Counted from the stretch's first letter, positions 7,247 through 49,722 are shown. The stretch: DNA of 58,674 nt from an uncultured Candidatus Saccharibacteria bacterium (GCA_964367655.1 CAYIYJ010000003.1:3041-61714); one strand, 5' to 3'. Numbers and translations: made by a program. The notes: generated by a model not told the origin, from the sequence alone.

Positions 7247-7560
7247 GTGTATATCTTACTCTTTTTATTTATATTTAATACAAATCAAAGCCATTAAGGG
7301 TGTGGATTAGTTGATAAGTCTAATAAATCTTTATTTTAAAGGGTTAAAACAGTATTTTTATGTGGATAAGTGTGTGTATACCTGTGGATATTGTGGATAC
7401 TTATACATAGAGGTATGTGTGTATGTGGATATGTAGTTTAAAAAGATTACTTTATACAGTAGTTATACATAACTTATGCAAAGGATATCCTCAATTAATC
7501 TACAACTTATAAACATAGATATACACATTAATAACCCACATATCCACATAGTTATACACA
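7247..7560. promoter_or_regulatory. oriC candidate in the dnaA-dnaN intergenic region, with a DnaA-box array and AT-rich stretch
   Basis: Boxes in one orientation: TGTGGATTA 7301-7309, TGTGGATAA 7361-7369, TGTGGATAT 7383-7391, TGTGGATAC 7392-7400, TGTGGATAT 7424-7432. Inverted box ATATCCACA 7540-7548. AT-rich run 7261-7290 next to dnaN. Confidence 0.7.
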
Positions 7561-8922
7561 TTATACTCGCAACATCGATCGTATCTGCCCCACTTCCTCT
7601 AGTATCTGATTGTTTGATTTTAACTCCTCAGAGATCTTTTCGCAGGCATGTAACACTGTTGTATGGTCTCTTCCCCCTAGTTTTTGACCAATAGAAGATA
7701 AGGAATTACTAAAGTCTTCTCTAAGTAAATACATAAGTATTTGTCTAGGTAGTGCAATTTCTTGTTTTCTGTTTTTATCCATCAAAGCCTGCTCTTCAAT
7801 TTTGTAAAATGATGCTACAGCCTTTAAAACATCTTTAAAAGTAATGCTTTTTGAAGATTTCGATACATTTTTTGTAAGGGTCTTTACTTCATCTAAGGTT
7901 AGAGGTCTTCCCCGTAGATCTGACTGCATTGATATGTTGTTTATAATACCTTCTATTTCTCGAATACTCCCTTCAAGTGTTTCGGCTAGGTATTGAACAC
8001 AGTTATCCTCTAGTGTTGACTGGGTTGAAGATAGTTTTGAACGTATGATGGCAATCTTTGACTCTGTATCAATCTTTGTTATGTCAACGATCATACCTTG
8101 AGAAAACCTTGATCTTAAACGACTTTCTAGGTTTTGGAGGTAGTTTGGGTGCTGGTCTGATGAAAAAATGATTTGTTTTTGATTGTCGTATAGATAATTG
8201 AACAAATGGAACAATTCTTCCTGAGTTTTCTCCTTATTTGATAGAAATTGGATATCATCCATGATTAACAGGTCATATTTACGGTATTTCTCCTTAAAAG
8301 AAGAAGCTTTATTGTTCTGAAGTGATGAAATATAGTCGTTTGTAAAGCGCTCAGATGTTACGTAGTAAACCTTCTTGTTAAGGCTGTGCTTGTAGTAGTT
8401 TCCTACAGCTTGCATGAGATGGGTCTTCCCTACCCCGGTACTACCGTGGAAGAATAATGGGTTATATACTGCTGGTTTCTTAATAACAGCCTGTGCTGAA
8501 GCATATGCGAGCTCGTTGAAAGATCCTACAACGAAAGATTCGAAGATGTACTTAGGGTTTAGATTGTCATGTAGGTCTATATAGTGGTCTTTTAAAGGTA
8601 ATTCGTTCTTCTGTGCGGTGTTTTGCCCCCCTTTTTCTTCTATAATAGGCTTATTTTTGTCTGTTTTAGGTACTACTGGAGCAATAACGTATTCTACGTT
8701 TTTAACGTCAGAGTGAGCCTCGCGGAAAAAGTTCAATATCTTGGTTACATACTTGTTCTGGATCCAATCCTTAGCAAAAGGGTTTTTTACGTTTATATAG
8801 ACTATTCCGTCCTGGTAAGAGTCCACCTGGGCATCCTTAAGCCAGGCATTATACGCTGAGGGTGTAACATCTTTCTTTATTCTTTCTAATATATTTTTCC
8901 AAATAGTTATGATATCTACCAT
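7561..8922 (-). CDS. dnaA: Chromosomal replication initiator DnaA
   Basis: Walker A GSTGVGKTHL, Walker B LLIMDDIQFL, C-terminal DNA-binding region GGRDHTTVLHACEKI. Confidence 0.97.
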   Translation of the reverse strand: MVDIITIWKNILERIKKDVTPSAYNAWLKDAQVDSYQDGIVYINVKNPFAKDWIQNKYVTKILNFFREAHSDVKNVEYVIAPVVPKTDKNKPIIEEKGGQNTAQKNELPLKDHYIDLHDNLNPKYIFESFVVGSFNELAYASAQAVIKKPAVYNPLFFHGSTGVGKTHLMQAVGNYYKHSLNKKVYYVTSERFTNDYISSLQNNKASSFKEKYRKYDLLIMDDIQFLSNKEKTQEELFHLFNYLYDNQKQIIFSSDQHPNYLQNLESRLRSRFSQGMIVDITKIDTESKIAIIRSKLSSTQSTLEDNCVQYLAETLEGSIREIEGIINNISMQSDLRGRPLTLDEVKTLTKNVSKSSKSITFKDVLKAVASFYKIEEQALMDKNRKQEIALPRQILMYLLREDFSNSLSSIGQKLGGRDHTTVLHACEKISEELKSNNQILEEVGQIRSMLRV

Positions 8923-8969
8923 GTGGATAAATTATATCGCTGTGGATAAGTTTAGGTACTTGTGGATAA
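8922..8969. repeat. Three perfect DnaA boxes upstream of dnaA
   Basis: TGTGGATAA at 8922-8930, 8941-8949 and 8961-8969, spaced 19 and 20 nt apart. The first box shares nt 8922 with the dnaA start codon. Confidence 0.8.
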
Positions 8970-10255: not shown

Positions 10256-10273
10256 TTGTGTGTATGATAAAAA

Positions 10274-10306
10274 CCGTAGGGGTTATCTTCCCTACGGTTT
10301 TTATTT
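10274..10306. terminator. Bidirectional rho-independent terminator between the convergent yidC and the 478-aa gene
   Basis: CCGTAGGG (10274-10281) pairs with CCCTACGG (10290-10297). It is flanked by an A-run upstream and a T-run downstream. Confidence 0.7.
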
Positions 10307-10311: not shown

Positions 10312-11748
10312 TTAAAGTTCGTATTTCCAAAGGGTTAGAGAGTATCTATCTTGAAACAATAAATACTTACCAGTAGAAGAGATTTTTATAGATAATACAT
10401 CTATTGGTGTTGTTAATTGATCTTGAAGAGGAACTACAACAGAGAATTCACCAGTTGAAGCGTTAATTGACCAGATGTTATCTGAGAAGCTCGTCTTATT
10501 TTGATACCAAGCATCTGGGTATGGTGCATTGGGTAATTTTTGAGGGATACCACAGAATACAAAAGTAGACTCTTTATTCCAAACACATTTTTCACTTAAA
10601 GTTGCTTGTGTTAATCTGGTATTTTTCTTTGTTTTTACATCAAATAGAAAGCTCTCTAAACGGTCGTTTATTATTTCGTTGTAAATAATCTTTGTACCAT
10701 CTGGAGATACAAGAGTTGTTAGTCCATACTTCCCTCCTAGTATGTATTCATTGTTTCCTGTACCATTTGTTTTTACAAAAAATAGATATCCAGGGAAATA
10801 TGCACTAGGTTTTGTTGTAAGTGATACAAGATCCTTATTTACATATTGATACAACCACTCTGTTAGAGATGTGTTTATCACAGTGTTTAGGTTTGATCCA
10901 TCAGGATTCACAGACACACCTCTTCCTGTTTTTGAAACAACATAAAACAGTGTACCTGTATTAGGTAGAACTGATACATGTTCTGAGTTTATACTTAGAT
11001 TCTTTATGTTTGTTGAGTAGATTGTACTTGTTGAGGTTTCTTTATATAGTTTTATGGCTCGTGATGTTATAGATTCGTTATCTGATGAGACACCTCTAAC
11101 AACAACAGTTGTTGGGTTTATAAAGAAAGCTTCTTGTATTCGTGGAAGTGTAAAGTTTGATAGTTTGAACACATCAGTTGATGATGATAGGTTTTCATAG
11201 ATGTGACCTGTTGATCTATCCCAAAGATATGCGAATTCTTGGTTTTTAAATATTGTTTTTTTGTAGATAATTACAGGTGTTGTTGTTGCCTCCACTACTG
11301 GTTTTTTAACAACCTCTTTTTTCTCATCGATGCTTCGAATGGTTGTTGAAGCGCTTGTCGTTGTGGCTGCTACAACTACAGGTTTTGCAACAATTGAAGA
11401 TGATGTGGATGTTACTTCGATGTCTTTGTATACAAAGTCAAAACCAGATACAGGTTCTTTCCATAGTTGTATCAGTCTTTGTTTTAGAACTGTATCAGAG
11501 GGTGTTTGGTTTGTGGTTGTGTTTTCAACTGGTGAGTTTGTAAAGATTCCTATCTGAGGATCTTCCACGTTTGTACTGGTAGACACTCGTTGTTGAAAAG
11601 CTGTCTTGCCTGTTTTAGGGTTTGTAACAATAGGTTCAGCTTTGTTTAGAGATGCTTTATAGAATGTTATTCCAAAATAAACCCCTACCCCAATGACTAA
11701 GAGTATTAGAACTATTAATATTGTTTTATATGGATTTTTTTTATTCAT
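10312..11748 (-). CDS. Membrane-anchored exported protein with a probable TolB/PD40-like beta-propeller; last gene of the T4SS-like array
   Basis: N-terminal TM helix ILIVLILLVIGVGVYFGITFY, Thr/Ser-rich linkers, and recurring NPDGS / SPDGTKIIY / STGKYLLF repeats. Confidence 0.5.
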   Translation of the reverse strand: MNKKNPYKTILIVLILLVIGVGVYFGITFYKASLNKAEPIVTNPKTGKTAFQQRVSTSTNVEDPQIGIFTNSPVENTTTNQTPSDTVLKQRLIQLWKEPVSGFDFVYKDIEVTSTSSSIVAKPVVVAATTTSASTTIRSIDEKKEVVKKPVVEATTTPVIIYKKTIFKNQEFAYLWDRSTGHIYENLSSSTDVFKLSNFTLPRIQEAFFINPTTVVVRGVSSDNESITSRAIKLYKETSTSTIYSTNIKNLSINSEHVSVLPNTGTLFYVVSKTGRGVSVNPDGSNLNTVINTSLTEWLYQYVNKDLVSLTTKPSAYFPGYLFFVKTNGTGNNEYILGGKYGLTTLVSPDGTKIIYNEIINDRLESFLFDVKTKKNTRLTQATLSEKCVWNKESTFVFCGIPQKLPNAPYPDAWYQNKTSFSDNIWSINASTGEFSVVVPLQDQLTTPIDVLSIKISSTGKYLLFQDRYSLTLWKYEL

Positions 11749-11750
11749 GT

Positions 11751-12992
11751 TTAGTTTTTTGGAATAAGTCGAACTGCAATCTGGCCACCATCTGGTACAC
11801 CAATGTCTCTTAGAACTTTTTTAGAAACATCAAAATCTGCATTACTACCTGCTTGTGGATGAGGACCCCAGTCTTTTACAGCTACCCCGTTCTGTGCCTG
11901 TAGAATGATAGATTGTTTTGTTTGTAGATTAACAACCTCAACATCAAAATCTCTAAGTCCTGAAGGTCCAACCATTCCATAGTTCCATCTAGCAGATATG
12001 TACTGATCGTTTTCTGTATCCAAATCTCTTTCTGTCATTGTTGAGTCAACACCTAGTTTTGCATCTGAGTTCTGGTTTTCATCTGATGGTCCTCCAAAAG
12101 TTGAAACTTTTCCTACATAGAATGTTTTACCATTAACTTCGATAGGTGTGTATCCGTCTTCTGTATATGTAATGGGGTTACCTCTACTATCTCGTACTGT
12201 GTTAAGACCTCCACTTTTTGCAAATTGAATACTTTCATTTCGAGGATCAATATTCCCTGCTGTTATAGGTCCAAGAAATGGAGCTGTTCCATTACCTGGA
12301 ACACCGGCCATTATACTTCCCATAAAGTTTGCATTAGCTTGAGCTGTGCTTATATTTTGGACATTTGCAGCAGCTTGTCTTTTACCTTGGTCTATTGTTT
12401 TCTCGAAATTGGTGTTTTTTACCGCCTCATCGAAAGAAAACTCTACTAAGCGGTTATTTACTGTATATAGAAGTACCCATGCTCCTACAGCCAACAAGAG
12501 GCCTTTAAGGGCTCCCATAAGCATCTTCTTAGCAGACCGCTTCTTGTCTGGGTTTGCTTGACTTACGATCATAGTAATACCTGCAATAGATATGTAGATA
12601 ACTGCCAAAACTGAACATATTCCTATAAAGATTCTAAATACAACAAAGATAAATCTATCGGTACTACCAGCAATTTTTATACAGTTTGTCCCCTGTCGGG
12701 TTTCTATGTTTAAAGCGTTCTTAAAAAGTGCAAAGTTTGTATCGATATTTGAAAACGGCATGTACAAGCCTTTATTTTCAAGGTATGGACAGGTTTTGCT
12801 GTTACCATATAATGTACTCGTAATAGATTTATTGTTTACGTTTTGACTACCATTACCTAAAGGAACTGTAGGATAAGGTGCTACTGTGTTTGGGGCTGTC
12901 TGAGCAGATACAGTCTGTGTGTGTAGAGTTAATCCAAAAGAAAACAATATAAGTATTGTTAGTATGTTTATTGTATGTGTAAATCCTTTCAT
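11751..12992 (-). CDS. Fusion protein: signal peptide, T4SS-pilin-like (TrbC/VirB2-type) TM hairpin, and C-terminal RlpA/DPBB-like putative cell-wall lytic domain
   Basis: Signal peptide ending VSAQ. TM hairpin FIFVVFRIFIGICSVLAVIYISIAGITMIV - ANPDKKRSAKK - MLMGALKGLLLAVGAWVLLY. C-terminal VSTFGGPSD...ISARWNYG...VKDWGPH...ADFDVSKKVLRDIG...GQIAVRLI resembles the RlpA-type double-psi beta-barrel. Confidence 0.5.
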   Translation of the reverse strand: MKGFTHTINILTILILFSFGLTLHTQTVSAQTAPNTVAPYPTVPLGNGSQNVNNKSITSTLYGNSKTCPYLENKGLYMPFSNIDTNFALFKNALNIETRQGTNCIKIAGSTDRFIFVVFRIFIGICSVLAVIYISIAGITMIVSQANPDKKRSAKKMLMGALKGLLLAVGAWVLLYTVNNRLVEFSFDEAVKNTNFEKTIDQGKRQAAANVQNISTAQANANFMGSIMAGVPGNGTAPFLGPITAGNIDPRNESIQFAKSGGLNTVRDSRGNPITYTEDGYTPIEVNGKTFYVGKVSTFGGPSDENQNSDAKLGVDSTMTERDLDTENDQYISARWNYGMVGPSGLRDFDVEVVNLQTKQSIILQAQNGVAVKDWGPHPQAGSNADFDVSKKVLRDIGVPDGGQIAVRLIPKN

Positions 12993-14017
12993 CTTGTAGT
13001 ATCTATTATATATGAAATATCTCTAGATTGCAGAAGTGATCGAGGTTGTTCTATGGATAGAGATAGAATAGATTCCTCGTTGTCTCGAGTTTTTTTGAAA
13101 GATATTGAATTTGTATTTTCTTTTATCAGTTCATTGTTTACAGACCACTTGTATACCCCACTAAGAGAGGATGGTATTCCAAAATAAAGCGGATACGCAA
13201 CCAGTGTTGCTTCTGACTTTATAAACTTGAATGTATCAGAAATTTGTTGAGTGAATAATATTCCAAGTAATGGTGTACTTTCATACATAAAGACATTTGT
13301 ATCAAAAGTTTGAACTCGAATAGCTGCAGTACTATCAATCTGACTGTCTGATCCAGTATCACGACTGCCATTCCTAAAAGCTGATATACCAGTCATGTTT
13401 ACTTCAAAATAAGGTTCTTGAAGCAGTAAATCACCTTGATATATATAGGTATTTCTACCAACACCTGATTCCTCCCCTATCACTTTACCGTCAACTTTCC
13501 AGTTGTAGTTGTAATAATTGTTAGTTAAAGGATTTTTTGCATCTAGGTTTAAAGCGTGAAGGATTATAGAAGACTCTGGTGTGTATAAAGACTTTCCTTT
13601 ATAAAAAGGTGGTGTATATGTGTTTGATTCCCAGACAATAACTGTGTTTTGAGGATTAAAATTCCAAACCTCCTCAGTTGCACTACCCTCACCTGTTAGG
13701 ATAACCAAACGTACTGTTGTTTTTTTTGCAAGGAAAAAAGATATCTTTGAACGTCCAATACCTTTTTCATATTCTTTTCCATCAACATACCATGTAAATA
13801 AAGCATCTTTTATAGGTGTACCATACATCTCAGTTGAGATCTCTACAGTGTCCCCTACTCTAGGTCTTGTTGGTAATACATCAAAATAAACCTTTTCTTT
13901 TAGTTCCTTTACACCGTTTGGGCCTGACAACTCTGGTGTTTGAGCGAAAATAGTTTGACTATATGCAAGAGAAAAAACAAGACAGAAACCTATTCCTATT
14001 TTTTGCCACGTATTCAT
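12989..14017 (-). CDS. Secreted protein with three repeated beta-sandwich-like modules
   Basis: Signal peptide (IFAQ). Recurring W-x-V-[DN]-[GN] anchors: FTWYVDGKEYEKG, YNWKVDGKVIGEE, YKWSVNNELIKEN. 4-nt ATGA overlap with the downstream gene. Confidence 0.5.
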   Translation of the reverse strand: MNTWQKIGIGFCLVFSLAYSQTIFAQTPELSGPNGVKELKEKVYFDVLPTRPRVGDTVEISTEMYGTPIKDALFTWYVDGKEYEKGIGRSKISFFLAKKTTVRLVILTGEGSATEEVWNFNPQNTVIVWESNTYTPPFYKGKSLYTPESSIILHALNLDAKNPLTNNYYNYNWKVDGKVIGEESGVGRNTYIYQGDLLLQEPYFEVNMTGISAFRNGSRDTGSDSQIDSTAAIRVQTFDTNVFMYESTPLLGILFTQQISDTFKFIKSEATLVAYPLYFGIPSSLSGVYKWSVNNELIKENTNSISFKKTRDNEESILSLSIEQPRSLLQSRDISYIIDTTR

Positions 14018-14036
14018 TATTTGTATTATACCTTAT

Positions 14037-15848
14037 TTAGTTCCGTAACCAAGTTTTCTTCTCTTCTTTCATCTTTAGAATCTGTGCAGGATCTGATGTG
14101 ATGATTTTACTTTCTGTTTCAGATGATACAACCTGCAAAGCAACGTGTTTTGTACCTGCAAAGAATATTCCTTCCCCTACCGCAGACTCTAGAAGTAGGT
14201 ATTTTTCCTCATCTGTAAGGTTGAATGTTTTTTGTACCATATCTATAGATGATGGTGATTGCTTCATCATGAACTGCATAGATGAGTTTGTGATGATTGG
14301 CAGTCCGTAAGGTGACTTTAGGAAGTCTTCAACGTCTTGAGTGATTGTGGACATTCCGAGGTAGTATTTTCGGCCTCTTTTTGCCAATCCGTATAAGAAT
14401 GAAGCTGTGTCTTCTGATTTCATCATCCACCAAGCCTCATCAATAACCAAAAGTCGCTTTTTAAGCTCTTTTCGGATTGCATTCCAGATATAGTGCATAA
14501 CTATATACATCGCTACAGGTTTAAGCTCATCTTCCATGTCTCGAAGAGAGAAAACAACGAATTTTTTATTAATATCAAGGTTTGAAGGTCTGTCTATGAA
14601 TCCTGCCCATGTTCCTTTGGTATATTTGGTCAATCTTTGTACTAGTGACTCCCCACCCTCCATTCCAGCCAATACAAGCTCGAAGTCTGACATAAGTGGA
14701 GGTTCAACCGCTGAAAAGTTTGATTCAGGAGAAATATCTTTAAGTGCATAGGTTTCAGTGATAGCTCGATCGATGATTGAATCTTCTTCTTGAGTAAGAC
14801 CTCCAAGCATGATTCGGAATAGTCCTACAAGGTTGATGATGTGTGAACGTAAAACATCTGCACTGGATTCATCTTCTCGAGGGATTGGCAGGTCAAATGG
14901 GTTAATATGGTTCTCTGAAGTAAGAGAGATGTTAAAGTATCTTCCACCTGTTGTTTCTGCTAGATATTCATATTCCCTCTCAGGGTCAAGAACAATAACA
15001 TCAATATCAAACATGAGTGATCGAAGAATCTCTAGTTTTGTAGCATATGATTTACCTGCTCCAGCCTTAGCGAAAGTAACAGAGTTATAGTTTTCAAGGG
15101 AGAATCTATCAAAAAGCACCAAACTACTGTTATGTTTGTTTATTCCGTACAATATACCTTTATCTGAAGTAAGGTCAAAAGAGATAAACGGGAAAATACT
15201 TGAAAGAGGTGCTGAATTGAGTTTTGTGTGAACATTCATCTCATCAACTGATACAGGAATAGCACTTCTAAAACCTTGTTCTTGTTGAAATAGTGATGGT
15301 TTTATGAAAACCAAGGCTGCCTCCAGGGTACTTTTTATTTCTGATTCGATTCTATTAAGCTCATCTTCTGAATCACCATACACAGATATGTAGATACCAA
15401 CATCAAATAGTTTTTCTTGGGCCTGTTGTAGATTGTCTCGTAGGTTTTCAAGGTTTTGATAAGAAGCTTCTAGTTGAGGATCTCGAACTAGCCCCTTCTC
15501 TTCTCGCTCAACGATCTGGCTTTGTACTTCGGCTACTTTCTTCTCAAACTCATGAAGAACTGAGGCTGTGTCTATAGGGTGAATAAAGATTGATATATCA
15601 AAAGCCTTATCTAGGTTGATGATTGGTGAAAACCAACTGTCTGAAAGGTATTTTGGATAAGACATCACAAAAAAACTACGAACAAGTTTCTCTCCCAGGT
15701 TCAGAGTCTTAGGACTAATCTTTAGAGCGGATGGTGCAATAATATCTTTCAACTCAAGAACAGAAGATCTGTATATATCTCGAGGAAGTACAGATGTTAT
15801 CTTTGTAAGTTGTTGATTCTTTGGTTTTAAAAAGTCGAAAAATCCCAT
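14037..15848 (-). CDS. VirB4/TrbE-family type IV secretion ATPase
   Basis: Walker A FAKAGAGKSYATK, Walker B RLLVIDEAWWMM, downstream RGRKYYLGMSTITQ. The 603-aa size and N-domain layout match Gram-positive VirB4 proteins. Confidence 0.85.
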   Translation of the reverse strand: MGFFDFLKPKNQQLTKITSVLPRDIYRSSVLELKDIIAPSALKISPKTLNLGEKLVRSFFVMSYPKYLSDSWFSPIINLDKAFDISIFIHPIDTASVLHEFEKKVAEVQSQIVEREEKGLVRDPQLEASYQNLENLRDNLQQAQEKLFDVGIYISVYGDSEDELNRIESEIKSTLEAALVFIKPSLFQQEQGFRSAIPVSVDEMNVHTKLNSAPLSSIFPFISFDLTSDKGILYGINKHNSSLVLFDRFSLENYNSVTFAKAGAGKSYATKLEILRSLMFDIDVIVLDPEREYEYLAETTGGRYFNISLTSENHINPFDLPIPREDESSADVLRSHIINLVGLFRIMLGGLTQEEDSIIDRAITETYALKDISPESNFSAVEPPLMSDFELVLAGMEGGESLVQRLTKYTKGTWAGFIDRPSNLDINKKFVVFSLRDMEDELKPVAMYIVMHYIWNAIRKELKKRLLVIDEAWWMMKSEDTASFLYGLAKRGRKYYLGMSTITQDVEDFLKSPYGLPIITNSSMQFMMKQSPSSIDMVQKTFNLTDEEKYLLLESAVGEGIFFAGTKHVALQVVSSETESKIITSDPAQILKMKEEKKTWLRN

Positions 15849-15860
15849 GTGTATATAATA

Positions 15861-16484
15861 CTACATCTTTATTGGTTTCTCTGCATCTCCTGGATTAAAT
15901 ATTCTATAAAACAATTCAACAAGTTCTTCACTTCCCAACCGTGCAACCTTCACACCGCAACGTGCAAGACCTTGTTCAACAACAGATACACGTTGTTCTA
16001 TCTGACTTTTCACTTCTTCGAAGGCATCATCTTTATTTTTCTCTATAGTTTTTTCATCTTTTTTACCTAAGATGTTTGATAGTGCGCCTGATGGTTTTGT
16101 ACTTCCTGCGTATGGTACTACGACAAAGAAACTTTTTGTCATAATACTTGATATCTCTGTGAGTCCTTTCACAAAGTTCATATACTCTGTAATCTGCATC
16201 TTCATAAGATCTGATGTTTGTGCTTTTAGACGATCATCCAACAAGGCTATATATGGTCTAATATCTAGTTTTCGTGATTGTATATATACTTGGATTGTAA
16301 AATCAAGAGAGTTTAGGAAGTTTTGGAACTGATAGATAACAGATTCCTGCTCTTCTATAGATTTAAGGGCAAAGTTTATAGATGAAGCAAGGACAACAGC
16401 TCGCATAGAACCGTCTTTAAGTATGAGTACACCTTCGCGAACCTCTTGGATAGGTACAAATTCTTGTGAAGGATTAAATGACAT
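15861..16484 (-). CDS. Stand-alone VirB4 N-terminal-domain-like protein (maximal ORF reaches a TTG at 16490)
   Basis: PIQEVREGVLILKDGSMRAVVLASSINFALKSIEEQESVIYQFQNFLNSLDFTIQVYIQSRKLDI has the same order of elements as the N-terminal domain of the adjacent VirB4. No ATPase motifs. Confidence 0.45.
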   Translation of the reverse strand: MSFNPSQEFVPIQEVREGVLILKDGSMRAVVLASSINFALKSIEEQESVIYQFQNFLNSLDFTIQVYIQSRKLDIRPYIALLDDRLKAQTSDLMKMQITEYMNFVKGLTEISSIMTKSFFVVVPYAGSTKPSGALSNILGKKDEKTIEKNKDDAFEEVKSQIEQRVSVVEQGLARCGVKVARLGSEELVELFYRIFNPGDAEKPIKM

Positions 16485-16554
16485 ACACAAAGTATAACTG
16501 TTTATGGTGTGTATGGGAAGATGAAGGTGTTTTATTTATTGTTGAAATGGCATT

Positions 16555-16664
16555 GAATCGGTCCTTACAGGACCAGTACAGGCTTCCCATTTTCTCAAAG
16601 CAAAGCTTTTCGAAAATATGGGAGAGCCTTTTCGATTCGCTCCCGAAAGCGCATTGGCGCTTTC
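16555..16664. ncRNA. Candidate structured RNA or DNA element of unknown class, next to tRNA-His
   Basis: Closing helix GAATCG(16555-16560)/CGATTC(16633-16638) encloses GTCC-ttaca-GGAC and a long imperfect hairpin, GGCTTCCCATTTTC(16581-16594)...GAAAATATGGGAGAGCC(16612-16628). This is followed by the perfect hairpin GAAAGCGC-attg-GCGCTTTC (16645-16664). Confidence 0.25.
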
Positions 16665-16704
16665 TTAGCCGCTGGTAGAGTATTATAAGATTTTATTTCG
16701 TCAC

Positions 16705-16779
16705 TGGGGCGGCTAGAGAGAATCGAACTCTCGACACAGGATCCACAAACCTGGGTTTTACCACTAAACTATAGTCGCC
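16705..16779 (-). tRNA. tRNA-His (GTG) with encoded G-1 and 3' CCA
   Basis: The reverse complement folds as a cloverleaf: G-1, acceptor GCGACTA/TAGCCGC (one A-C mismatch), anticodon loop TTGTGGA, T-arm GAGAG-TTCGATT-CTCTC, discriminator C, CCA. Confidence 0.85.
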
Positions 16780-16803
16780 ATATGTTCCAACTGTATATGT
16801 ATA

Positions 16804-17247
16804 TCAGTGTTTTGGGGTTTTTTCAAGGTCTGCAGTAGAAAATACGTTGTCTTTGATGTCCAAACCCCAAGCTAGATCTTTTAGCTTACTCTGAGATAAT
16901 GTTGGGGCAACAAACTCATCTGCAATGTTGTTTGTGTGTTCGTTAGCTGCTTTTGCCTCGACTGGCTTGTCTACCTTCTTCCAAACGTACAACTTGCCTC
17001 CTAAAAAGAAAGACAAGGCAGCCTCCAGGGCTGCAACAAACGGTCTTCCGTTTATCTTTATGAAAGCTAGAGCAAAACTCAATAGACACAGAGGTATTAT
17101 TAACAGTATTCCTGGAAATAATCCTAAAACCTTATATATGATATATGAACCCCCTGCCCCACCAAGTACATACGCAAATTGCCGGAAAGAAAATGGTCCG
17201 ATTATTTTACTTTCGAATTCAATAAATTGTGGTACTTGATAACGCAT
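16804..17247 (-). CDS. PrgI-family (VirB3-like) T4SS membrane protein
   Basis: N-terminus MRYQVPQFIEFESKIIGPFSFRQFAYVLGG followed by two TM helices, the hallmark layout of PrgI-family proteins. Confidence 0.7.
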   Translation of the reverse strand: MRYQVPQFIEFESKIIGPFSFRQFAYVLGGAGGSYIIYKVLGLFPGILLIIPLCLLSFALAFIKINGRPFVAALEAALSFFLGGKLYVWKKVDKPVEAKAANEHTNNIADEFVAPTLSQSKLKDLAWGLDIKDNVFSTADLEKTPKH

Positions 17248-17253
17248 GTGATC

Positions 17254-18144
17254 TTATTCTATAGGCTCACGATAGATATCGTGGCTTATCTCTATCTTAG
17301 CAGGTTTTGTAATTATTGGTTGAATTGGTGGTTTCGGTGTTTGTTCTGCTTTTACAGGTTGTGGGGCGACTGGTGTTTCAACATGTATAGGTTCTTCTAT
17401 GTGTGTATTTTCAAGCTGATGATCGGGCGGTGTTATCTTCTCTTCTACAACAGGTGGTGTAGGTTTTATTACTTTGAATATTGGTGATGAAAATGATTTC
17501 TGTGGTTGTTCTAACTCTTTCAGGATATCTTCTTTTTCTGATTGTAATGTTTCTGTTGGAGTTGTGGCTGATATATCTAGAGTTGCGGTTTTTAATGTAG
17601 GTTCAGCAATGTTTCTCTTGTTTGCTAGATATTGTGCTGGTGTTACTCCCTCCATATGTGCCATATCTTCTTCTGAGAGGTCTCCACCGTTGGCTTTTAT
17701 CTCTTTTTCTACCTCCTCTACCACTTTTACATATTCATTGTCTTGTTGTGCGTAGATGGTGTTTATTTCCTCTATCTCCTTTTCAGCATCGTTTAGATAT
17801 GTTTTTTGCATCTCTTCAACTTCTCGCTCCTCATCTTTAAACTTCTCAATACGTTGTTTTATCTTTTCAATAATGGTGGTGTTTATCTCAACTAGGATAT
17901 CACCTGCCATCTGATAACTTACTTTACCGTCATGAAAAAGACTTTCAACAAATCCTGTAGGATCTATATCTCCCAGTATAAACTGTTGACATAGTGTTTC
18001 CAATGTAGCTGATTGATCAATATGAAGTCGATATTTTTTCTTTATAGTTTCAAGTTCTTGAACATAATCCGTTTCCTCAATAGACCAGCGTACATAGTCT
18101 GGAAGTGTTTCTAATTTTTCTTGAAAATATGTAGTGTTGTTCAT
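17254..18144 (-). CDS. Acidic hypothetical protein with a Pro-rich C-terminus and no TM helix
   Basis: 296-aa ORF 6 nt upstream of prgI-like. E/K-rich coiled region and a PxP-rich tail. No known motif. Confidence 0.5.
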   Translation of the reverse strand: MNNTTYFQEKLETLPDYVRWSIEETDYVQELETIKKKYRLHIDQSATLETLCQQFILGDIDPTGFVESLFHDGKVSYQMAGDILVEINTTIIEKIKQRIEKFKDEEREVEEMQKTYLNDAEKEIEEINTIYAQQDNEYVKVVEEVEKEIKANGGDLSEEDMAHMEGVTPAQYLANKRNIAEPTLKTATLDISATTPTETLQSEKEDILKELEQPQKSFSSPIFKVIKPTPPVVEEKITPPDHQLENTHIEEPIHVETPVAPQPVKAEQTPKPPIQPIITKPAKIEISHDIYREPIE

Positions 18145-18165
18145 ATTGTATTAATTTAACTTTGG

Positions 18166-21100
18166 TTATCCTTTCTTCTCTGCTTCTTTTATCTTTTCTT
18201 TTAGTTCTTCTATTTTTGTTTTAATATTACCACGGTTTTTGATTGCGCCGTCTTTTATACCCTTCAGAGATGCTTCCTTCTTCTCTAGTTTAATAGATGC
18301 TTCATCGAGAGCTGTCTGCATCAGATCGATTACTCGAGGGTCAGGAGTAGGTTTAGCCTTCTCTGCTTGTAGGTTATTTTCGTACATTTTTATTAATCCT
18401 CCAGTAACAGCTGTTCCTTTTAGTTTTTCTATTTCACGTGTAAGAGCATTTACAGAAGCTACGCTGATAATTCCTTTGAGTTTTGCAGGATCTGTTTTGA
18501 TCAAGTTCTCTAGATCTGCTAGTTTCTCTGGATGTTTCTGTAGGTTTGCTTCTGCTTTTGCAAGGTCGTCTTTTAGTTTTTCTAGACTTGAAACTTCTTT
18601 AGCTCGACTTGCCAATTGAGTTTTGAAGGCTGCTTCTCTTGCTTTGAATTTGCCATTACTCATCATTCTGCTCTTTGGGTGTCTCATGCTGGCAGCTAAA
18701 CGACCCCCTTCTGCGTGGGCTGTATATACGTTGTTTAGATGATCTCGCATCTTACCTTGATTGAATCGATATGTTACATTACCTGCGGCATCAGTTTCAG
18801 CGACCACGCCTTGCATAGCCTGCTCCGTAAGTCCTTCCTCGTGAGATTTACCACTATTCTCAGGGTCTGCATGTGCCAGTATTCTCTCATCGAGATATAT
18901 CTTAGCCTTAGCCTTTGCAAAAGCTGTAACTCTATCTCGGAAAGCTGCTTCATTTTCATTTTCATAACCTTTCTCTTTATATTTTGGTGCAGTTATGGCT
19001 GTTTCTGCAGCTATGGCTGTATTTGTTGCATCTTCTGCCCCATTACCTGCCCACCATTTATTTCTAGCTTCTTTCCATTGTTTTTTTGTCTTACCAAAGA
19101 GTGTTGGGTCCTTTGTTCTGTTTGCCAAGTTCGCTGCTGCGTTACGTACAAACGCAGGGGCATTACCATTAGCTGCAATAGTTGACCCAAGTTTGTTCAA
19201 ATTTTTGAAACCTCCAAGACCTCGTATAGTGCCTTTTCCTAGCTGTCCTGCTGTATACAAAGCTGCCTTAGGTGCCTGTTTTAGACCTTCCATAGCCATA
19301 CTACCAGCTTTACTTCCAGTATCACGTACTTTGTTACCTAGTTTTTTTGCAAGACCAATAGAACTCATCTCGGCCAAGCTTTTGAACTTGTTTGTGATAC
19401 TTGAACCAAAACTCCCTTCTGTATTCTTAGCACTGTATTTTACAGCAGCAAGTATAACCCAGATTACTAAACAGAAGTTTAGTATAAGTGGAAGTTGAGT
19501 CATCATGTTCTGGTTATCGGCTGTACAGAAAAGTGTAAGAAAGTTTAAGCCGTTTGATATACCAAAAAGTTTGGTAAACACAAACATTGCTACGAACATA
19601 AACAACATGAATACTACTGGAAATCTGATCACATACATCATTCGTTTCCACCAGTTGTTTTTTAGTGTTGCAAAAACTCCTTGATCCATAATGTGTCCCC
19701 AAACCCAAAGCGGTGATGTTATGAACAGGAAGACGATATTTGCCATTCGTACAAAGAATAGTATTCCAACCATGAGGAACGCTAGTCCAATAATGATCAT
19801 GAATATAGATCCGAATATCGCAACTTTGATGATTGCTCCATGAGCATCACCACAACCTTCGACTGTTTTTGTTGCATTGCCTGTGATATCACTAAAGTTA
19901 TATATACTAGCCAATCCAAGAGTGTTCATGATTCGGCTCGAGATAGTTGAAGGATTTGTACTTTGTAGTGCAGTTGTTCCGTCACTCTTTGTAGCTTGAT
20001 AAAGTTGTAGTGTAACAATGTTTGATCCGTCAACCATAGCTTTGGCTGCAAAAAGACTGAAGTTGATCAATATTGCAACTACTATAACACGCACTACATC
20101 CCCTTTTATTGTGTAACTACCTTTTTGCAATATGATATGTACCGCAATCCACAACAACACAAAGATGAAAGTCATGTTGAGTAGGTCTCGTACAAAAGTC
20201 CAAGTAGGATCTACAACACCGATTCGCTGTATGAATTCAGCAGAGTTTACTGCAAGCTCTATAGAATAGTCGAATAGGATACCTACTACGTTTAGTGCGT
20301 AGGCAACGAGGTTCATGCCGATGTTGAAGAGTGTTGCAAGAGTTGCGGTCCAACAATCTAAGTTGTGGAGCCATTTGAAACCCTCACAGGCTTGTCCAAT
20401 GTTGATGTTATCCCCTTGTGCTGCTGCTGTGGTTCTAATTCTCTGTCTCTCAAGTAATTCTTGCTGTGATACAAGATTGTCACGTTGTGATAGTAAACTG
20501 TCACGTTGCGCTTGTTCTTGAGAGGTTAGATCTCTCCCGTTTGAAGCTTGGTCTATTGCATCAATCTGATCTTGTATCTTTTTTGCTTCGTCTGCTGCAG
20601 TATCTCTTTCTTGTGTAATCCTGTTTCTGTTTCCTAAGGATGAATCTGAGTTTCTTAGTCCTGAACTTGTAGAACCTTCTTTTAAATCATGTGTTCTGTC
20701 ATACCAGTTGTTAAAACCTGCCTCAGTACTCATGTCAGTGATAGCATCCTCTGACTGATTTGCTGTAAGTTTTTTTAGAGGCTGTGGTGGTATTATAACT
20801 CCATCTTTTGTTGCTTTTGCGATAAGACGGTCTTGTTTGTCGGGAAATTCTGCTCCAGATGCGTAATAGTTTGTAACATTCGAACCCCCTACTTTTGTGG
20901 TAATAGAGTAGATATTATCTGTTTTGTATTGAGTTCCTAATTTCTGATTGAGTCCCGCTCCTACATATGGAAAGTTGTTATCATCTACTAGTTCTTTTTT
21001 ACCTTGATCACCTGTACTCCCATATATTTGTCTACCTCGTAAGTAATTAAAAGGAGTTTTTTCAGTTGACCCTCCCATATCGTCACCTGATCCGATGTAT

Positions 21101-21267
21101 CTGTCATATGTATCCTCTAAAGGAGCAACCTTCCACCCCTCTGGTGCAACAGGTGCTGTTGTTCCCTGTGCTCCAACCTCTACCCCGCCAAACATCAATC
21201 CGGCAACCACCAACAAAAAACCTAATTTAGAAAAAAAACGTTTTTTTACAACCAAATAGATATTCAT
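18166..21267 (-). CDS. Giant VirB6/TrbL-like polytopic membrane protein with an exported N-domain and a long coiled-coil cytoplasmic tail
   Basis: Signal or anchor sequence, roughly 300 aa of exported region with a Q/R/D-rich coiled coil, at least 6 hydrophobic helices (aa ~300-650), then a K/A/E-rich tail of about 380 aa. The call rests on architecture and context with VirB4/PrgI. Confidence 0.5.
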   Translation of the reverse strand: MNIYLVVKKRFFSKLGFLLVVAGLMFGGVEVGAQGTTAPVAPEGWKVAPLEDTYDRYIGSGDDMGGSTEKTPFNYLRGRQIYGSTGDQGKKELVDDNNFPYVGAGLNQKLGTQYKTDNIYSITTKVGGSNVTNYYASGAEFPDKQDRLIAKATKDGVIIPPQPLKKLTANQSEDAITDMSTEAGFNNWYDRTHDLKEGSTSSGLRNSDSSLGNRNRITQERDTAADEAKKIQDQIDAIDQASNGRDLTSQEQAQRDSLLSQRDNLVSQQELLERQRIRTTAAAQGDNINIGQACEGFKWLHNLDCWTATLATLFNIGMNLVAYALNVVGILFDYSIELAVNSAEFIQRIGVVDPTWTFVRDLLNMTFIFVLLWIAVHIILQKGSYTIKGDVVRVIVVAILINFSLFAAKAMVDGSNIVTLQLYQATKSDGTTALQSTNPSTISSRIMNTLGLASIYNFSDITGNATKTVEGCGDAHGAIIKVAIFGSIFMIIIGLAFLMVGILFFVRMANIVFLFITSPLWVWGHIMDQGVFATLKNNWWKRMMYVIRFPVVFMLFMFVAMFVFTKLFGISNGLNFLTLFCTADNQNMMTQLPLILNFCLVIWVILAAVKYSAKNTEGSFGSSITNKFKSLAEMSSIGLAKKLGNKVRDTGSKAGSMAMEGLKQAPKAALYTAGQLGKGTIRGLGGFKNLNKLGSTIAANGNAPAFVRNAAANLANRTKDPTLFGKTKKQWKEARNKWWAGNGAEDATNTAIAAETAITAPKYKEKGYENENEAAFRDRVTAFAKAKAKIYLDERILAHADPENSGKSHEEGLTEQAMQGVVAETDAAGNVTYRFNQGKMRDHLNNVYTAHAEGGRLAASMRHPKSRMMSNGKFKAREAAFKTQLASRAKEVSSLEKLKDDLAKAEANLQKHPEKLADLENLIKTDPAKLKGIISVASVNALTREIEKLKGTAVTGGLIKMYENNLQAEKAKPTPDPRVIDLMQTALDEASIKLEKKEASLKGIKDGAIKNRGNIKTKIEELKEKIKEAEKKG

Positions 21268-21312
21268 ATACTACTGTATAGTATACTAATAAAATTAAAT
21301 TTATTCTACTTT

Positions 21313-22848
21313 TTAATTCAAAACTTTATTGAGTGCTGTATTGATCAATTCATTTACAATAACAGCAATAACTTGATCAAATTTTTCAGCCAAAACAAGT
21401 CTATCTTTTGAAATATTTAGAGTTTTGTTTAGCTGATCTTCGATAAGATTTCCTGGTGTTGTGATAGGACACTTACTCTTATCCTTCTCTGCTGTTTTTG
21501 AATCACATTTTCTGAAACTCAAGAATCCCTTACCCCAACTTAATTCTAGATTTGCAAGATCTTTCTTTTGTTGTGTTCTGCCGTACATTTGAGCACTAAG
21601 ATTTAGATATGTACTATAAGGGTTATTTGCCTGTACTTGAGATATTTTAAGCCAACTGTCCCAACCACCTCTGCGGAAGTCTCCACCTAAGAAGGCTTTT
21701 AGATCTCCTTTTATATTACTTAAAGAACAACCTCCAAAAGTCCTGTTACCCGCTCCTCCCCCGTATCCACCGTTCGCATAACCGTCAGATCCATAATATC
21801 CTGTACCTAAATAATCTCGTGCAATCGTAAGTACGATCTGTGCTCGGAATGGTTGGCAGATGTTTTGTCCAATAACTCCGTAAGCAATCTGTTGTAGAAA
21901 TGCTCCAGCCTCCAAATCTCCTAGTTGTTTAAAGAATTGTTCTGGATTGTCTACAAAAGATGGATTTCCTTGAAAACCTGATTTAGCCCAAGCAATAGTT
22001 GATCGAGCAATATAATCTATCATCGAGTTTACAATACAGTATCCAACAGCATCCCAACTTATGTTGACCATGCCGTTTATGCCAGCAAAACCTATTGTTG
22101 TTCCAGTATGTGCAGCACTTTGGAACTGAAGCTGTTCTTTCGTTCTAACAGTGTCTAATTTTACATTCCAATCTGCTACGGGAACACTCAAGAGTCCTAT
22201 GGCTGTACCTACAACAGTTTCAGCTGCACCAACGACACTGTTTATAGCTGTAGAGATGGTTGATGTTAGGAGGTTTGATAGAAGTGTTCCTGCAAAGCAT
22301 GATGCTGCTGATTTGGCAGGTGTACCTGCTTGTACAGATGTTGAACTGCCACTTGTGTAAGCTTGGGCTTGAGATGGACGGCCTGCAGTACTTTTGTTCA
22401 CCTGTCTTATTGCTGTGTCTAGGGCAGCTTCGGTGTCTCCTGGTAAATCTGGTGTAGAAAGAAGGTTGTCCGCCAATATATTGTTATCTTGTTCGGGGAT
22501 ATTGTTCCAATCTAAAGGATTTCTTGCATCTGTGTATCCGTTTATAACAACATCGTCATATGTAAGATCGGCCTGTTCACCTTCGCTTGGGTATGGGGTT
22601 ACGGCATCTATATCATAAGGGTTATCATAAGTGTAATCTCCTGTATCTGGGGCAATCTCGTTGCCTTCCCCTGGAGGTGGCAGTAACAAAGTGTAAGGGT
22701 TACCACTAGAATCTGTACCAGAACTTTCTTCTCCAGGTAGTGGAATATCGGTTTGTGCTAACAGCAATGTAGGTAGTGACGAAGAATACAAGATAAAACC
22801 AACTAGGAGTATAACGATGTTTAATTTTTTAATAAAAGTTTTTATCAT
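21313..22848 (-). CDS. Secreted hypothetical protein
   Basis: 511 aa; signal peptide (LLLAQ); acidic Pro-rich N-region followed by a Cys-containing globular region. No known motif. Confidence 0.5.
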   Translation of the reverse strand: MIKTFIKKLNIVILLVGFILYSSSLPTLLLAQTDIPLPGEESSGTDSSGNPYTLLLPPPGEGNEIAPDTGDYTYDNPYDIDAVTPYPSEGEQADLTYDDVVINGYTDARNPLDWNNIPEQDNNILADNLLSTPDLPGDTEAALDTAIRQVNKSTAGRPSQAQAYTSGSSTSVQAGTPAKSAASCFAGTLLSNLLTSTISTAINSVVGAAETVVGTAIGLLSVPVADWNVKLDTVRTKEQLQFQSAAHTGTTIGFAGINGMVNISWDAVGYCIVNSMIDYIARSTIAWAKSGFQGNPSFVDNPEQFFKQLGDLEAGAFLQQIAYGVIGQNICQPFRAQIVLTIARDYLGTGYYGSDGYANGGYGGGAGNRTFGGCSLSNIKGDLKAFLGGDFRRGGWDSWLKISQVQANNPYSTYLNLSAQMYGRTQQKKDLANLELSWGKGFLSFRKCDSKTAEKDKSKCPITTPGNLIEDQLNKTLNISKDRLVLAEKFDQVIAVIVNELINTALNKVLN

Positions 22849-22856
22849 GAATACAC

Positions 22857-23708
22857 TTACTGCGTTGTTATAATAGTACTATTTTCAGTTTGGTTTATCC
22901 ACCCGTATGCAGGATCTGTTTTTTCGTAGACAACCTTATTAAGTTTTATAATGTTTTGAATCGCGGCAAAGCTCTTTAAAAGAGTATCGTTTGCTGTTTT
23001 TGCATTCTGTAGACCAAGAAGTGCACGTGCTGGATCTTTTTCTTGTAGTGCAAGTAATGTGAATGAATATGCAAAGTCTCGATATGAGTTTATTATCGCA
23101 AGGTGATAGTTTGCGAGTGGTGCTGGCACTGGTTGTTTTGCCAATACAACAGCTATTTTAAAATAAAGTGCTTGTAAATAATCTTGTGAATTTTTCTTTC
23201 CATCTAGGGATGCAATTGCTTTTGCAAGGGTGTTTTGAATTATGACTAGATTATTTCCATATACCTTAAGATTTGATACGGTTGCTTTTGCAAGGCGGAT
23301 CTGTTTGATTGTGACTTTAGATTTTGGTATCTGCTCCCCTTTTACACCGTCAGATGCTAGTTTTTTAAGGGTTTCTTCACTAAAATTACCAGATGTATTG
23401 TATTGAATATATTCACCGAATACATCTTTCGCTATACGATCACTCAGTGTATCCCCAGGTTTCTTTTTGTATGAATCTGTTACTTTTTCAAACGAAGCTA
23501 ATTGTTGTTTAACAATTGTGTTAAAAATACTCTGTTGATAATCATCTTCGTCAATAGTTGATTGTTCTGCTGTTTTTCCCCCTACTTCATCACCTATAAC
23601 AATATTCCCTGTCCGAGCGTTGTTGTTTTTATTTTTTTGTGAATAGACTGTCACAATCAAAATGATCACTATACATATAGCCGCTAGGTTGAGAGTCTTC
23701 TTGTGCAT
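22857..23708 (-). CDS. Membrane-anchored helical hypothetical protein
   Basis: 283 aa; N-terminal TM helix LAAICIVIILIVTVY. The remainder looks helical by composition (not computed). Confidence 0.5.
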   Translation of the reverse strand: MHKKTLNLAAICIVIILIVTVYSQKNKNNNARTGNIVIGDEVGGKTAEQSTIDEDDYQQSIFNTIVKQQLASFEKVTDSYKKKPGDTLSDRIAKDVFGEYIQYNTSGNFSEETLKKLASDGVKGEQIPKSKVTIKQIRLAKATVSNLKVYGNNLVIIQNTLAKAIASLDGKKNSQDYLQALYFKIAVVLAKQPVPAPLANYHLAIINSYRDFAYSFTLLALQEKDPARALLGLQNAKTANDTLLKSFAAIQNIIKLNKVVYEKTDPAYGWINQTENSTIITTQ

Positions 23709-30506: not shown

Positions 30507-30512
30507 TGAAAA

Positions 30513-48361: not shown

Positions 48362-48382
48362 TCTGCTCGTGCTTTAAAAAAT

Positions 48383-48428: not shown

Positions 48429-48462
48429 AAACACTTGCAATAGAAAACTAAACTCAATAACA

Positions 48463-48492: not shown

Positions 48493-48506
48493 GTTATGAT
48501 ATATGT

Positions 48507-49721: not shown

Positions 49722-49722
49722 T

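Follow-up and report, generated by a model that had tools for sequence, protein, structure and literature searches.

The 58,674-nt stretch of DNA analysed here (GCA_964367655.1, CAYIYJ010000003.1:3041-61714; hereafter the window) belongs to a Paceibacteria/Parcubacteria genome within the Patescibacteria, and it carries a chromosomal type IV secretion system (T4SS). Ten large open reading frames (ORFs), co-directional and tightly packed on the minus strand at 10312-23708, encode proteins of 478, 413, 342, 603, 209, 147, 296, 1033, 511 and 283 amino acids (aa). Together they make up a split motor, a platform of PrgI/VirB3 and a probable VirB6-like protein, a pilin-DPBB protein, four exported or anchored partners (g478, g342, g511 and g283) and one cytoplasmic partner (g296). 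This block is very probably a vertically inherited machine that derives from the conjugation apparatus of monoderm bacteria (class MPF_FATA) and whose own genes are transferred by no detectable means; the window holds no relaxase, coupling ATPase or VirB11. Beyond published work, we add a comparison of VirB4 conservation with that of DnaA, the swappable tails of the pilin, the transcription of the cluster towards oriC, and the conserved C-terminal tail of g296.

The locus is an ordinary member of the published Patescibacteria T4SS and no new kind of system. Quinonero-Coronel et al. (2025) found VirB4 in 2,417 of 3,035 Patescibacteria genomes, mostly in one monophyletic clade nested in MPF_FATA; the usual partners of virB4 are TrsD, PrgI/VirB3, VirB6 and VirB2-like pilins, and its neighbourhood in Paceibacteria and Microgenomatia includes dnaA, dnaN, rnpA, ksgA and rpmH (PMC12102498). 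Those genomes hold just 109 relaxases, 15 of them near virB4, and homologues of the type IV coupling protein (T4CP) are mostly far off. Co-option was proposed, perhaps to bring DNA or other macromolecules into the cell (PMC12102498). Using transposon sequencing, Wang et al. (2023) found that the T4SS cluster of Southlakia epibionticum, which has no coupling protein or relaxase, is essential in co-culture (PMC10633639). In a 2025 review, the Patescibacteria systems appear as the most recent additions to the T4SS superfamily (PMC12857230). Epibiotic growth of S. epibionticum depends on its T4SS (PMC10633639, PMC12857230). So the domesticated, relaxase-less T4SS beside dnaA and rsmA that a preliminary description of this DNA had recognised, from the sequence and without database searches, was already in print (PMC12102498, PMC10633639, PMC12857230).

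From the first gene by coordinate to the last, the junctions within the cluster are 2, -4 (an ATGA overlap), 19, 12, 313, 6, 21, 45 and 8 nt. The preliminary description had the layout and the junctions right, but it counted eleven genes, six of them without a family; there are ten, and five are family-less. We looked in the gaps for an eleventh gene; the 313-nt gap contains only chance ORFs of 20-66 aa, and there is no further ORF in the others.

The motor and its membrane platform

The following genes encode the motor and the platform:

14037..15848, minus strand: VirB4 ATPase core, 603 aa (NCBIfam conju_CD1110; Walker A GAGKS, Walker B VIDEAWW)
15861..16490, minus strand: stand-alone VirB4 N-domain/TrsD-like protein, 209 aa, 12 nt upstream of virB4
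16804..17247, minus strand: PrgI/VirB3-family membrane protein, 147 aa (PF12666)
18166..21267, minus strand: probable VirB6-like protein, extended and polytopic, 1033 aa, with an N-terminal exported domain, a transmembrane region and a coiled-coil C-terminus

The 603-aa protein scores 364 bits against conju_CD1110 (cut-off 325) and also matches P-loop_TraG in Pfam (2e-24). When VirB4 models are ranked, MPF_FATA types come out on top: CD1110 (364 bits) is followed by the model from the integrative and conjugative elements (ICEs) of Mycoplasma (269), TraC-F (189), VirB4/CagE (109) and CedB (39). Database homologues number more than 8000, and all of the named ones are from Parcubacteria, Paceibacterota, Taylorbacteria, Pacebacteria or the "Patescibacteria group". 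Judging by these matches, this VirB4 appears to be related to the VirB4 of MPF_FATA systems, with its nearest relatives inside the Patescibacteria.

The match to conju_CD1110 covers only positions 181-733 of the 752 in the profile, so the N-domain is missing from the 603-aa protein. The 209-aa protein resembles the missing region: in NCBIfam it matches the N-region of VirB4_plasma (E = 1.8e-9) and TrsD/TraD (1.8e-6), both below the cut-offs, as well as VirB4_CagE (positions 8-174, 4e-6), and its orthologue in the close relative L081 has a precomputed match to the TraC-like family PF26593. Thus, the motor is split into two genes. (The TTG start of the 209-aa protein is uncertain; there is an ATG two codons further in.) The 147-aa protein, which starts with YQVPQFIEFESKIIGPFSFRQF, matches PrgI (PF12666) with 32.7 bits, above the gathering score of 27. 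The preliminary description had named a VirB4, a stand-alone N-domain protein and a PrgI/VirB3-like protein by eye, and profile hidden Markov model (HMM) searches agree with it on all three; the GAGKS and VIDEAWW motifs and the N-terminus of the 147-aa protein are also as it reported them.

The 1033-aa protein has at least six transmembrane helices (aa 313-609), followed by a hydrophilic, coiled-coil C-terminus of about 400 aa. Between aa 391 and 622 it has sub-threshold matches in NCBIfam to Mbov_0396 (3e-4) and MMCAP2_0566 (4e-3), which are both VirB6-type models from Mycoplasma ICEs, and 6 of 41 orthologues match TrbL/VirB6 in Pfam (best 6e-5). A profile search of the PDB with this protein returned coiled-coil noise only. 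On these matches and its topology, the protein is probably VirB6-like, which lends some support to what had been proposed from its polytopic appearance.

Conservation and chromosomal position

A scan of species-representative genomes confirmed at least 484 relatives of the locus. We used the best 80 loci, in which VirB4 is 73-88% identical to that of the window. The gene order is rsmA, the cluster, yidC on the opposite strand, dnaA and dnaN, and the order of the ten slots is kept throughout the related loci. Among loci with sufficient downstream flank, 51 of 52 have yidC on the strand opposite to the cluster and dnaA on the cluster's own strand, at a median of 5.4 kb beyond virB4, together with dnaN; on the upstream side, rsmA adjoins the cluster in 48 of the 54 loci with sufficient flank. 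The TrsD-like protein is found in 79 of the 80 loci and PrgI in 77. The GC content is 0.35-0.39 inside the cluster and 0.33-0.41 outside it, with no shift. The conserved synteny and the flat GC content imply that the cluster is part of the ancestral, vertically inherited core chromosome. This is how the preliminary description had read it, and neither of the two signs of an island that it had proposed to look for was found: the locus is not patchily distributed (51/52 and 48/54), and its composition does not change. Its broader reading, of a domesticated apparatus derived from a T4SS, is likewise supported by the family and fold evidence, the synteny, the even GC content and the lack of a relaxase in the window.

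Across the 80 species, the median identity to the window's protein is 76% for VirB4, 58% for the TrsD-like protein, 51% for DnaA, 51% for PcrA, 46% for PrgI and 25-30% for the exported partners. In L081, VirB4 is 95% identical and DnaA 88%, while the pilin-DPBB protein (51%), g511 (51%) and the VirB6-like protein (42%) are far more divergent. The motor is very strongly constrained and the exposed parts evolve rapidly. VirB4 is more conserved than DnaA, PcrA or any other neighbour.

Conjugation genes in and around the window

We ran Pfam on all 38 other ORFs of at least 100 aa in the 58.7 kb. Apart from VirB4 itself, no relaxase, VirD4/FtsK/TraG-type ATPase or VirB11 was found among the window's ORFs of this size. 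Nor is there a relaxase in the approximately 4.4 kb upstream, which we read on L084, a short contig from another assembly with an identical RuvB; the negative result for the coupling protein covers the window and the same 4.4 kb. The preliminary description had found none of these three, nor an integrase, anywhere in the window. It was right about the first three, but the window does encode a recombinase (35238-36191), of the housekeeping XerC/XerD type.

We considered three features that might be taken for parts of a mobile element. A 388-aa T2SSE ORF is not a VirB11: it scores 57 bits against that model, with a cut-off of 250, and 406-429 bits against PilB/GspE. The recombinase is not an ICE integrase: it is XerD/XerC-type (230-237 bits) and lies 11.5 kb from the cluster. 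And a tRNA-His gene is not an integration site, as it is internal to the cluster and specific to one clade.

A pilin module with exchanged tails

The VirB2-like protein of the cluster is a fusion:

11751..12992, minus strand: 413-aa protein in which a signal peptide precedes a VirB2-like two-helix hairpin of the T4SS_pilin type (about aa 111-184), with a DPBB domain at the C-terminus (about aa 250-413)

Its own matches to pilin models are both below the cut-offs: T4SS_pilin gives 23.1 bits (gathering score 26.6) and the Mbov_0395 pilin of NCBIfam gives 30.9 bits (1.6e-7). However, 37 of 39 proteins from the same slot in related loci match T4SS_pilin. The two transmembrane segments are at aa 114-132 and 157-175. 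The DPBB_1 match in Pfam is weak (E = 0.05). In the AlphaFold2 (AF2) model, the predicted local distance difference test score (pLDDT) averages 55, with 70-77 in the hairpin and 60-86 in the C-terminal domain, and the best PDB matches of this model in Foldseek are DPBB folds: kiwellin (E = 7.5e-4), followed by the p97 N-domain, Ufd1 and a mycobacterial AAA N-domain. The slot orthologues and the Foldseek ranking together bear out the pilin-like hairpin fused to a DPBB domain that had been described from the sequence. DPBB is the fold of cell-wall-active proteins of the RlpA, 3D and expansin types. The DPBB domain is predicted to face outward: the signal peptide, the two transmembrane helices and the positive charges of a loop (KKRSAKK) would put it on the outside of the cell. 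The 413-aa protein has only 10 homologues among 5.8 billion proteins.

The preliminary description also placed VirB2 in the conserved core of monoderm systems. This is not what the literature says: T4SSs of Gram-positive bacteria are generally without VirB2 pilins, and the presence of one is unusual (PMC12102498, PMC12857230, PMC10633639).

The slot of the pilin module lies between the orthologues of g342 and g478 in loci L001-L080: a lineage HMM found one such gene in 58 loci and two in 5, always in the same place (63 loci). From 39 aligned slot proteins we took the 35 tails of at least 40 aa. These fall into 22 unrelated similarity clusters, and the sequences diverge completely past the hairpin. 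The largest cluster has eight members, of which six have a metallopeptidase-like motif (H-x-D...H-W-H) and one matches Peptidase_M15_4; a profile search of the PDB with this group gave no match. The tail domains recognised in related loci are Peptidase_M15_3, NlpC/P60, CHAP, SLT and SLT_3. L046 has a pilin+M15_3 gene and a pilin+SLT gene in tandem, and in L001, which has a VirB4 88% identical to that of the window, an NlpC/P60 tail occupies the position of the window's DPBB domain.

Similar fusions are found more widely. There are 3,911 matches to the window's pilin module among 1.84 billion representative proteins, and among the best 150 of these, 113 have a single module (80 with tails of at least 100 aa) and 37 have 2-11 modules per polypeptide. 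We searched Pfam with 76 of the pilin-tail proteins (P0197-P0343), namely 75 long-tail representatives and the window's protein. Apart from the pilin families themselves, cell-wall enzymes are the most frequent: VanY was found in 9 proteins, NlpC/P60 in 6, M15_4 in 4, SLT in 4, M15 in 2, and YkuD, 3D and SLT_2 in 1 each, and six other, unrelated families had one match each below 1e-3. All of the Pfam-recognised tail domains (E ≤ 0.001) with a clear enzymatic assignment are cell-wall enzymes. No domain was recognised in about two thirds of the tails, and some loci have tail-less pilins.

Quinonero-Coronel et al. note that homologues of VirB1 are associated with virB4 in Paceibacteria, and they do not describe fusions with the pilin (PMC12102498). 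We did not find a pilin-hydrolase fusion described in the literature that we searched, the coverage of which was incomplete, so its novelty is not proven.

In many related loci (within L004-L075), an extra ORF of 110-240 aa lies directly after virB4 and before the g342 orthologue; the window has no such ORF. We considered that it might be a second pilin, and rejected this because the lineage HMM does not match it.

Five partners without a family

The other five proteins of the cluster are:

10312..11748, minus strand: g478, 478 aa, with an N-terminal membrane anchor (hydrophobic aa 9-27) and a beta-propeller-like ectodomain
12989..14017, minus strand: g342, 342 aa, secreted, with a signal-peptide-like N-terminus and Ig-like or PKD-like repeats
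17254..18144, minus strand: g296, 296 aa, cytoplasmic, with a conserved N-terminal domain, a variable Pro/Glu-rich low-complexity linker and a C-terminal tail
21313..22848, minus strand: g511, 511 aa, secreted, of low complexity in its N-terminal region and with a conserved C-terminal domain that contains Cys residues
22857..23708, minus strand: g283, 283 aa, with an N-terminal anchor (one transmembrane segment, aa 5-23)

Of the exported proteins, g342 is present in 74 of the 80 related loci, g478 in 59 and g511 in 55, and the slot of g283 is filled by a protein of about 250-350 aa in most of the related loci shown. No Pfam or NCBIfam family matches g478, and a profile built from 40 of its orthologues matches the TolB propeller in the PDB (E = 1.4e-3). 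For g342 there are weak matches to PKD_3 and BiPBP_C, and weak profile matches to Ig-like Hoc and decoration proteins. The conserved residues of g511 are W287, G291, P296, C331 and C374; its 66 homologues are all hypothetical proteins from Patescibacteria. It has no match in Pfam, NCBIfam or the PDB, and its AF2 model (pLDDT 52) is unusable, with nothing below E = 1 in Foldseek. No family or PDB match was found for g283, which is a candidate for the position of VirB8 by topology only.

The cytoplasmic protein g296 has no transmembrane segment, no Pfam or NCBIfam family and no PDB profile match. But g296 and 27 slot orthologues share a near-invariant sequence at the extreme C-terminus, D-(P/I)-Y-(R/K)-E-P-(I/V)-E (DPYREPIE-like; codons near 17254-17280), and in the alignment of these 28 proteins D289, Y291 and E293 are invariant. 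This peptide looks like a docking or recognition tail.

Genomic context

Non-coding features in and beside the cluster, and the genes at the probable origin, are:

16705..16778, minus strand: tRNA-His(GTG), inside the 313-nt gap between the PrgI and TrsD-like genes (ARAGORN and Rfam)
10266..10305, unstranded: hairpin with a 17-bp stem, between the convergent yidC and the last gene of the cluster
7301..7560, unstranded: DnaA-box cluster in the dnaA-dnaN spacer, with seven boxes similar to TTATCCACA, one of them perfect and six with a single mismatch
8922..8969, unstranded: three perfect DnaA boxes directly upstream of dnaA
7561-8922, minus strand: dnaA
6083-7246, minus strand: dnaN

The tRNA-His is at this position only in the window, L081, L082, L001 and L002, and a scan of 45 other loci did not find it; it is a passenger specific to one clade and no conserved part of the machine. 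Between it and the TrsD-like gene, downstream of the tRNA, is a non-coding spacer of 214 nt (16491-16704), whose length and sequence vary among the five genomes that share the tRNA-His. An Rfam scan found no RNA family in this spacer, and only the five tRNAs were found. The hairpin at 10266..10305 probably acts as a bidirectional terminator at the end of the cluster.

The window has 33 matches to the DnaA box, as compared to 19 ± 4.5 expected, and the two groups of boxes that flank dnaA are probably the two halves of a bipartite oriC. The 3' end of the cluster is about 1.3 kb from them. The cluster, rsmA, pcrA and a 1226-aa ORF (about 20 kb in all) are transcribed towards this probable origin, and the orientation is the same in 51 of 52 related loci. 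The cluster would therefore meet the replication fork head-on, an uncommon arrangement for conserved and presumably well-expressed genes; the origin is assigned by DnaA boxes only. The 1226-aa ORF (26862-30542, minus strand, TTG start) lies directly beyond pcrA, on the strand of the cluster; neither Pfam nor NCBIfam gives a match for it, and it lacks hydrophobic segments.

In the Pfam scan, one flank of the cluster has ruvB, ruvC, a class A penicillin-binding protein, dnaN, dnaA, rnpA and yidC, and the other has rsmA, pcrA, clpP, tig, nusA, tpi, pgk, recJ and rnhA. The same scan identified a type IV pilus gene set. At 1-1194 and 45995-53015 there are two ATPases of the PilB/GspE type (one of them truncated by the start of the window), pilC, three prepilin-type genes and a 593-aa "choice-of-anchor R" protein, so a type IV pilus system and the T4SS are both in the origin-proximal region. 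The truncated ATPase is the 388-aa T2SSE ORF, which is the C-terminal part of a 561-aa PilB-like gene. In exact-protein look-ups, this truncated ORF had no record, and the window's last ORF matched short contigs only. A cell-wall hydrolase with LysM and Peptidase_M23 domains is encoded at 30667-31821 (plus strand), 7 kb from the cluster; M23 and LysM domains have been named among VirB1-like proteins (PMC12102498).

Proposed mechanism and alternatives

What was computed here is the list of parts, their predicted topology and the pattern of conservation; the mechanism that we propose builds on established T4SS biology. A hexamer of VirB4, completed by the TrsD-like protein, would dock via PrgI and the VirB6-like channel. 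Driven by ATP, it might extract pilin-module subunits from the membrane and so build a short conduit or pilus across the envelope. The hydrolase-like head of the pilin would open peptidoglycan, in the cell's own wall or possibly in the host's, and would thereby supply the missing VirB1 function. The fast-evolving anchored and secreted partners may form the surface-exposed part that contacts the host. In this way macromolecules, and not DNA by conjugation, would move between the episymbiont and its host; import of host DNA or nucleotides and export of protein are the candidates for cargo and direction. We lean slightly towards a contact device that breaches the host wall, because the pilin heads are polymorphic. 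A more specific version, in which the exchanged hydrolase heads are displayed on a filament or anchor that the T4SS assembles and are aimed at the host wall, the T4SS is a drill for episymbiotic feeding, and the DPYREPIE tail of g296 is a docking adaptor or substrate, strikes us as unlikely.

We also considered that the cluster might be the mating-pair-formation module of an ICE that is still mobile, with a relaxase, coupling protein, integrase and att sites beyond the window. Its VirB4, PrgI, pilin and VirB6-like proteins are homologous to components of ICEs and plasmids, it contains a tRNA gene, a tyrosine recombinase is encoded 11.5 kb away, and in this phylum VirD4-like genes are often distant from virB4 (PMC12102498). 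However, this seems inconsistent with the position between rsmA and yidC/dnaA, which is fixed in 48/54 and 51/52 loci, with the housekeeping genes on both flanks, with the uniform GC content and with a VirB4 that is more conserved than DnaA. Furthermore, the recombinase is XerC/D-type, the clade-specific tRNA-His is internal instead of at a boundary, and relaxases are rare in Patescibacteria (109 in 3,035 genomes, with 15 near virB4; PMC12102498). A mobile ICE is extremely improbable. At the other extreme, a host-independent envelope machine that, for instance, secretes or inserts the cell's own wall or surface components, with an essential cell-autonomous role, would explain why VirB4 is conserved even more than DnaA and PcrA, why inheritance is strictly vertical, and why the position by oriC, yidC and the class A penicillin-binding protein is fixed; it would also fit the presence of VirB4 in 2,417 of 3,035 genomes across the phylum (PMC12102498). 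But the fast-evolving exposed parts and the polymorphic hydrolase heads suggest adaptation to an external partner, and the essentiality in S. epibionticum was measured in co-culture with its host and was interpreted as host-linked (PMC12857230, PMC10633639). We view a housekeeping role as quite improbable.

Two readings involve a partner cell. If the tails are displayed or exported, then the VirB2-like module may present variable cell-wall hydrolases, and perhaps other effectors, to breach the host's envelope. This would explain why 35 tails from 39 loci form 22 unrelated clusters, why the recognised enzymatic tails (E ≤ 0.001) are all cell-wall enzymes, why DPBB and NlpC/P60 are swapped between genomes whose VirB4 proteins are 88% identical, and why the exported partners evolve much faster than the motor; effector delivery has also been suggested in the literature (PMC11665869, PMC10633639). 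On the other hand, the hydrolases of Gram-positive conjugation systems act on the cell's own wall, as in the role of VirB1, so the tails may be self-directed (PMC12102498). Most tails, about two thirds, lack a recognised domain, some pilins have no tail, and no target is known. We regard an attack device as a tentative possibility. The other reading is a DNA-uptake machine like ComB of Helicobacter or archaeal Ced, in which the T4SS core runs in reverse and imports host or environmental DNA as a source of nucleotides. The window has no relaxase or T4CP, and its VirB4 has a weak similarity to CedB; this match has just 38.9 bits, with a cut-off of 700, and no DNA-binding or nuclease domain was recognised in the ten proteins (Pfam, NCBIfam). 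Polymorphic cell-wall-hydrolase heads are, to our knowledge, not a feature of ComB or Ced, which also argues against uptake. Patescibacteria lack nucleotide synthesis, and in S. epibionticum comEC is dispensable and the T4SS essential; an uptake role has already been suggested in print (PMC11665869, PMC12102498). ComB is cited as a precedent for an uptake role of a T4SS (PMC11665869), but uptake has no experimental support in any Patescibacterium. We think that DNA uptake is possible and rather doubtful.

Several points weigh against a vertically inherited, host-directed machine as we propose it. A 2024 perspective calls the role of the T4SS "completely unknown" (PMC11665869), and essentiality is known only from another class, the Saccharimonadia (PMC10633639, PMC12857230). 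No host is known for the organism in the window. VirD4-like genes are common in this phylum at a distance from virB4 (PMC12102498), so absence from the window does not amount to absence from the genome. As to the components, the pilin and DPBB calls for the window's protein are below the Pfam thresholds and its AF2 model is moderate (mean pLDDT 55), the VirB6 assignment rests on sub-threshold matches, and no VirB8-like protein was identified among the ten cluster proteins. Also, a pilin with a C-terminal domain of 230 aa may or may not polymerise, and the 413-aa protein may simply be a membrane-anchored hydrolase.

About 80% of Patescibacteria genomes, extremely reduced though they are, retain this class of system, and it is essential in the sole species tested. 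Swappable peptidoglycan-hydrolase domains on a VirB2-like module may explain why VirB1 has been reported as scarce, and the pilin-hydrolase fusions offer a testable handle on the targeting of host walls. We expect that specialists will find the sharply asymmetric conservation, the polymorphic fusions and the conserved C-terminal peptide of g296 useful.

Comparison with known systems

The closest known system is the Patescibacteria-clade T4SS, as in S. epibionticum (SEML1_0006-0019), with which the window shares VirB4, a TrsD-like protein, PrgI/VirB3, a VirB2-like pilin and probably VirB6. Both are chromosomal, neither has a relaxase or T4CP adjoining virB4, and the neighbours known from Paceibacteria (dnaA, dnaN, rnpA, ksgA/rsmA and rpmH) are the same. 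But the window has a single pilin gene, fused to a cell-wall-hydrolase-like domain, where Saccharimonadia have an array of six pilins. The pilin fusion, the five Paceibacteria-specific partners, the tRNA-His and the transcription towards oriC are details that we did not find in PMC12102498 or PMC10633639.

Among MPF_FATA systems (CTn2/CD1110, Prg of pCF10, Trs of pGO1 and Tra of pIP501), CD1110 is the best model for the window's VirB4, and homologues of PrgI and TrsD are common to both. They also share a monoderm architecture without VirB7, VirB9 or VirB10 and with a peptidoglycan hydrolase associated with the machine. Unlike these systems, the locus is not mobile, and the window has no relaxase or T4CP (no search was made for oriT); a VirB2-like pilin is present, and a recognisable VirB8-like protein or adhesin is not. 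Its hydrolase-like domain is fused to a pilin hairpin, whereas the hydrolase of MPF_FATA systems is on a simple anchor.

The transfer module of Mycoplasma ICEs has three counterparts in the window: the pilin matches Mbov_0395 (1.6e-7), the transmembrane protein matches Mbov_0396 (3e-4), and VirB4 matches Mbov_0397 (7.6e-80; 1.8e-9 for the N-domain protein), and every one of these matches falls short of its curated cut-off. Unlike the locus here, Mycoplasma ICEs are mobile and encode DNA processing of their own. ComB and archaeal Ced are derived from T4SSs and work without a relaxase. However, ComB of Helicobacter pylori is a diderm system with VirB2-4 and VirB6-10, unlike the window, and the match of the window's VirB4 to CedB is negligible.

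VirB1-type hydrolases, such as PrgK, TraG of pIP501 and CwlT of ICEBs1, likewise consist of an N-terminal membrane segment and, after it, domains of the SLT, NlpC/P60 or CHAP type, and are encoded adjoining virB4; the tandem pilin+M15 and pilin+SLT genes of L046 resemble a two-domain VirB1. In the systems described here, by contrast, the anchor is a T4SS_pilin/VirB2-like hairpin, and the enzymatic domain that it carries is swapped among at least six families, with DPBB, as in the window, being one of them.

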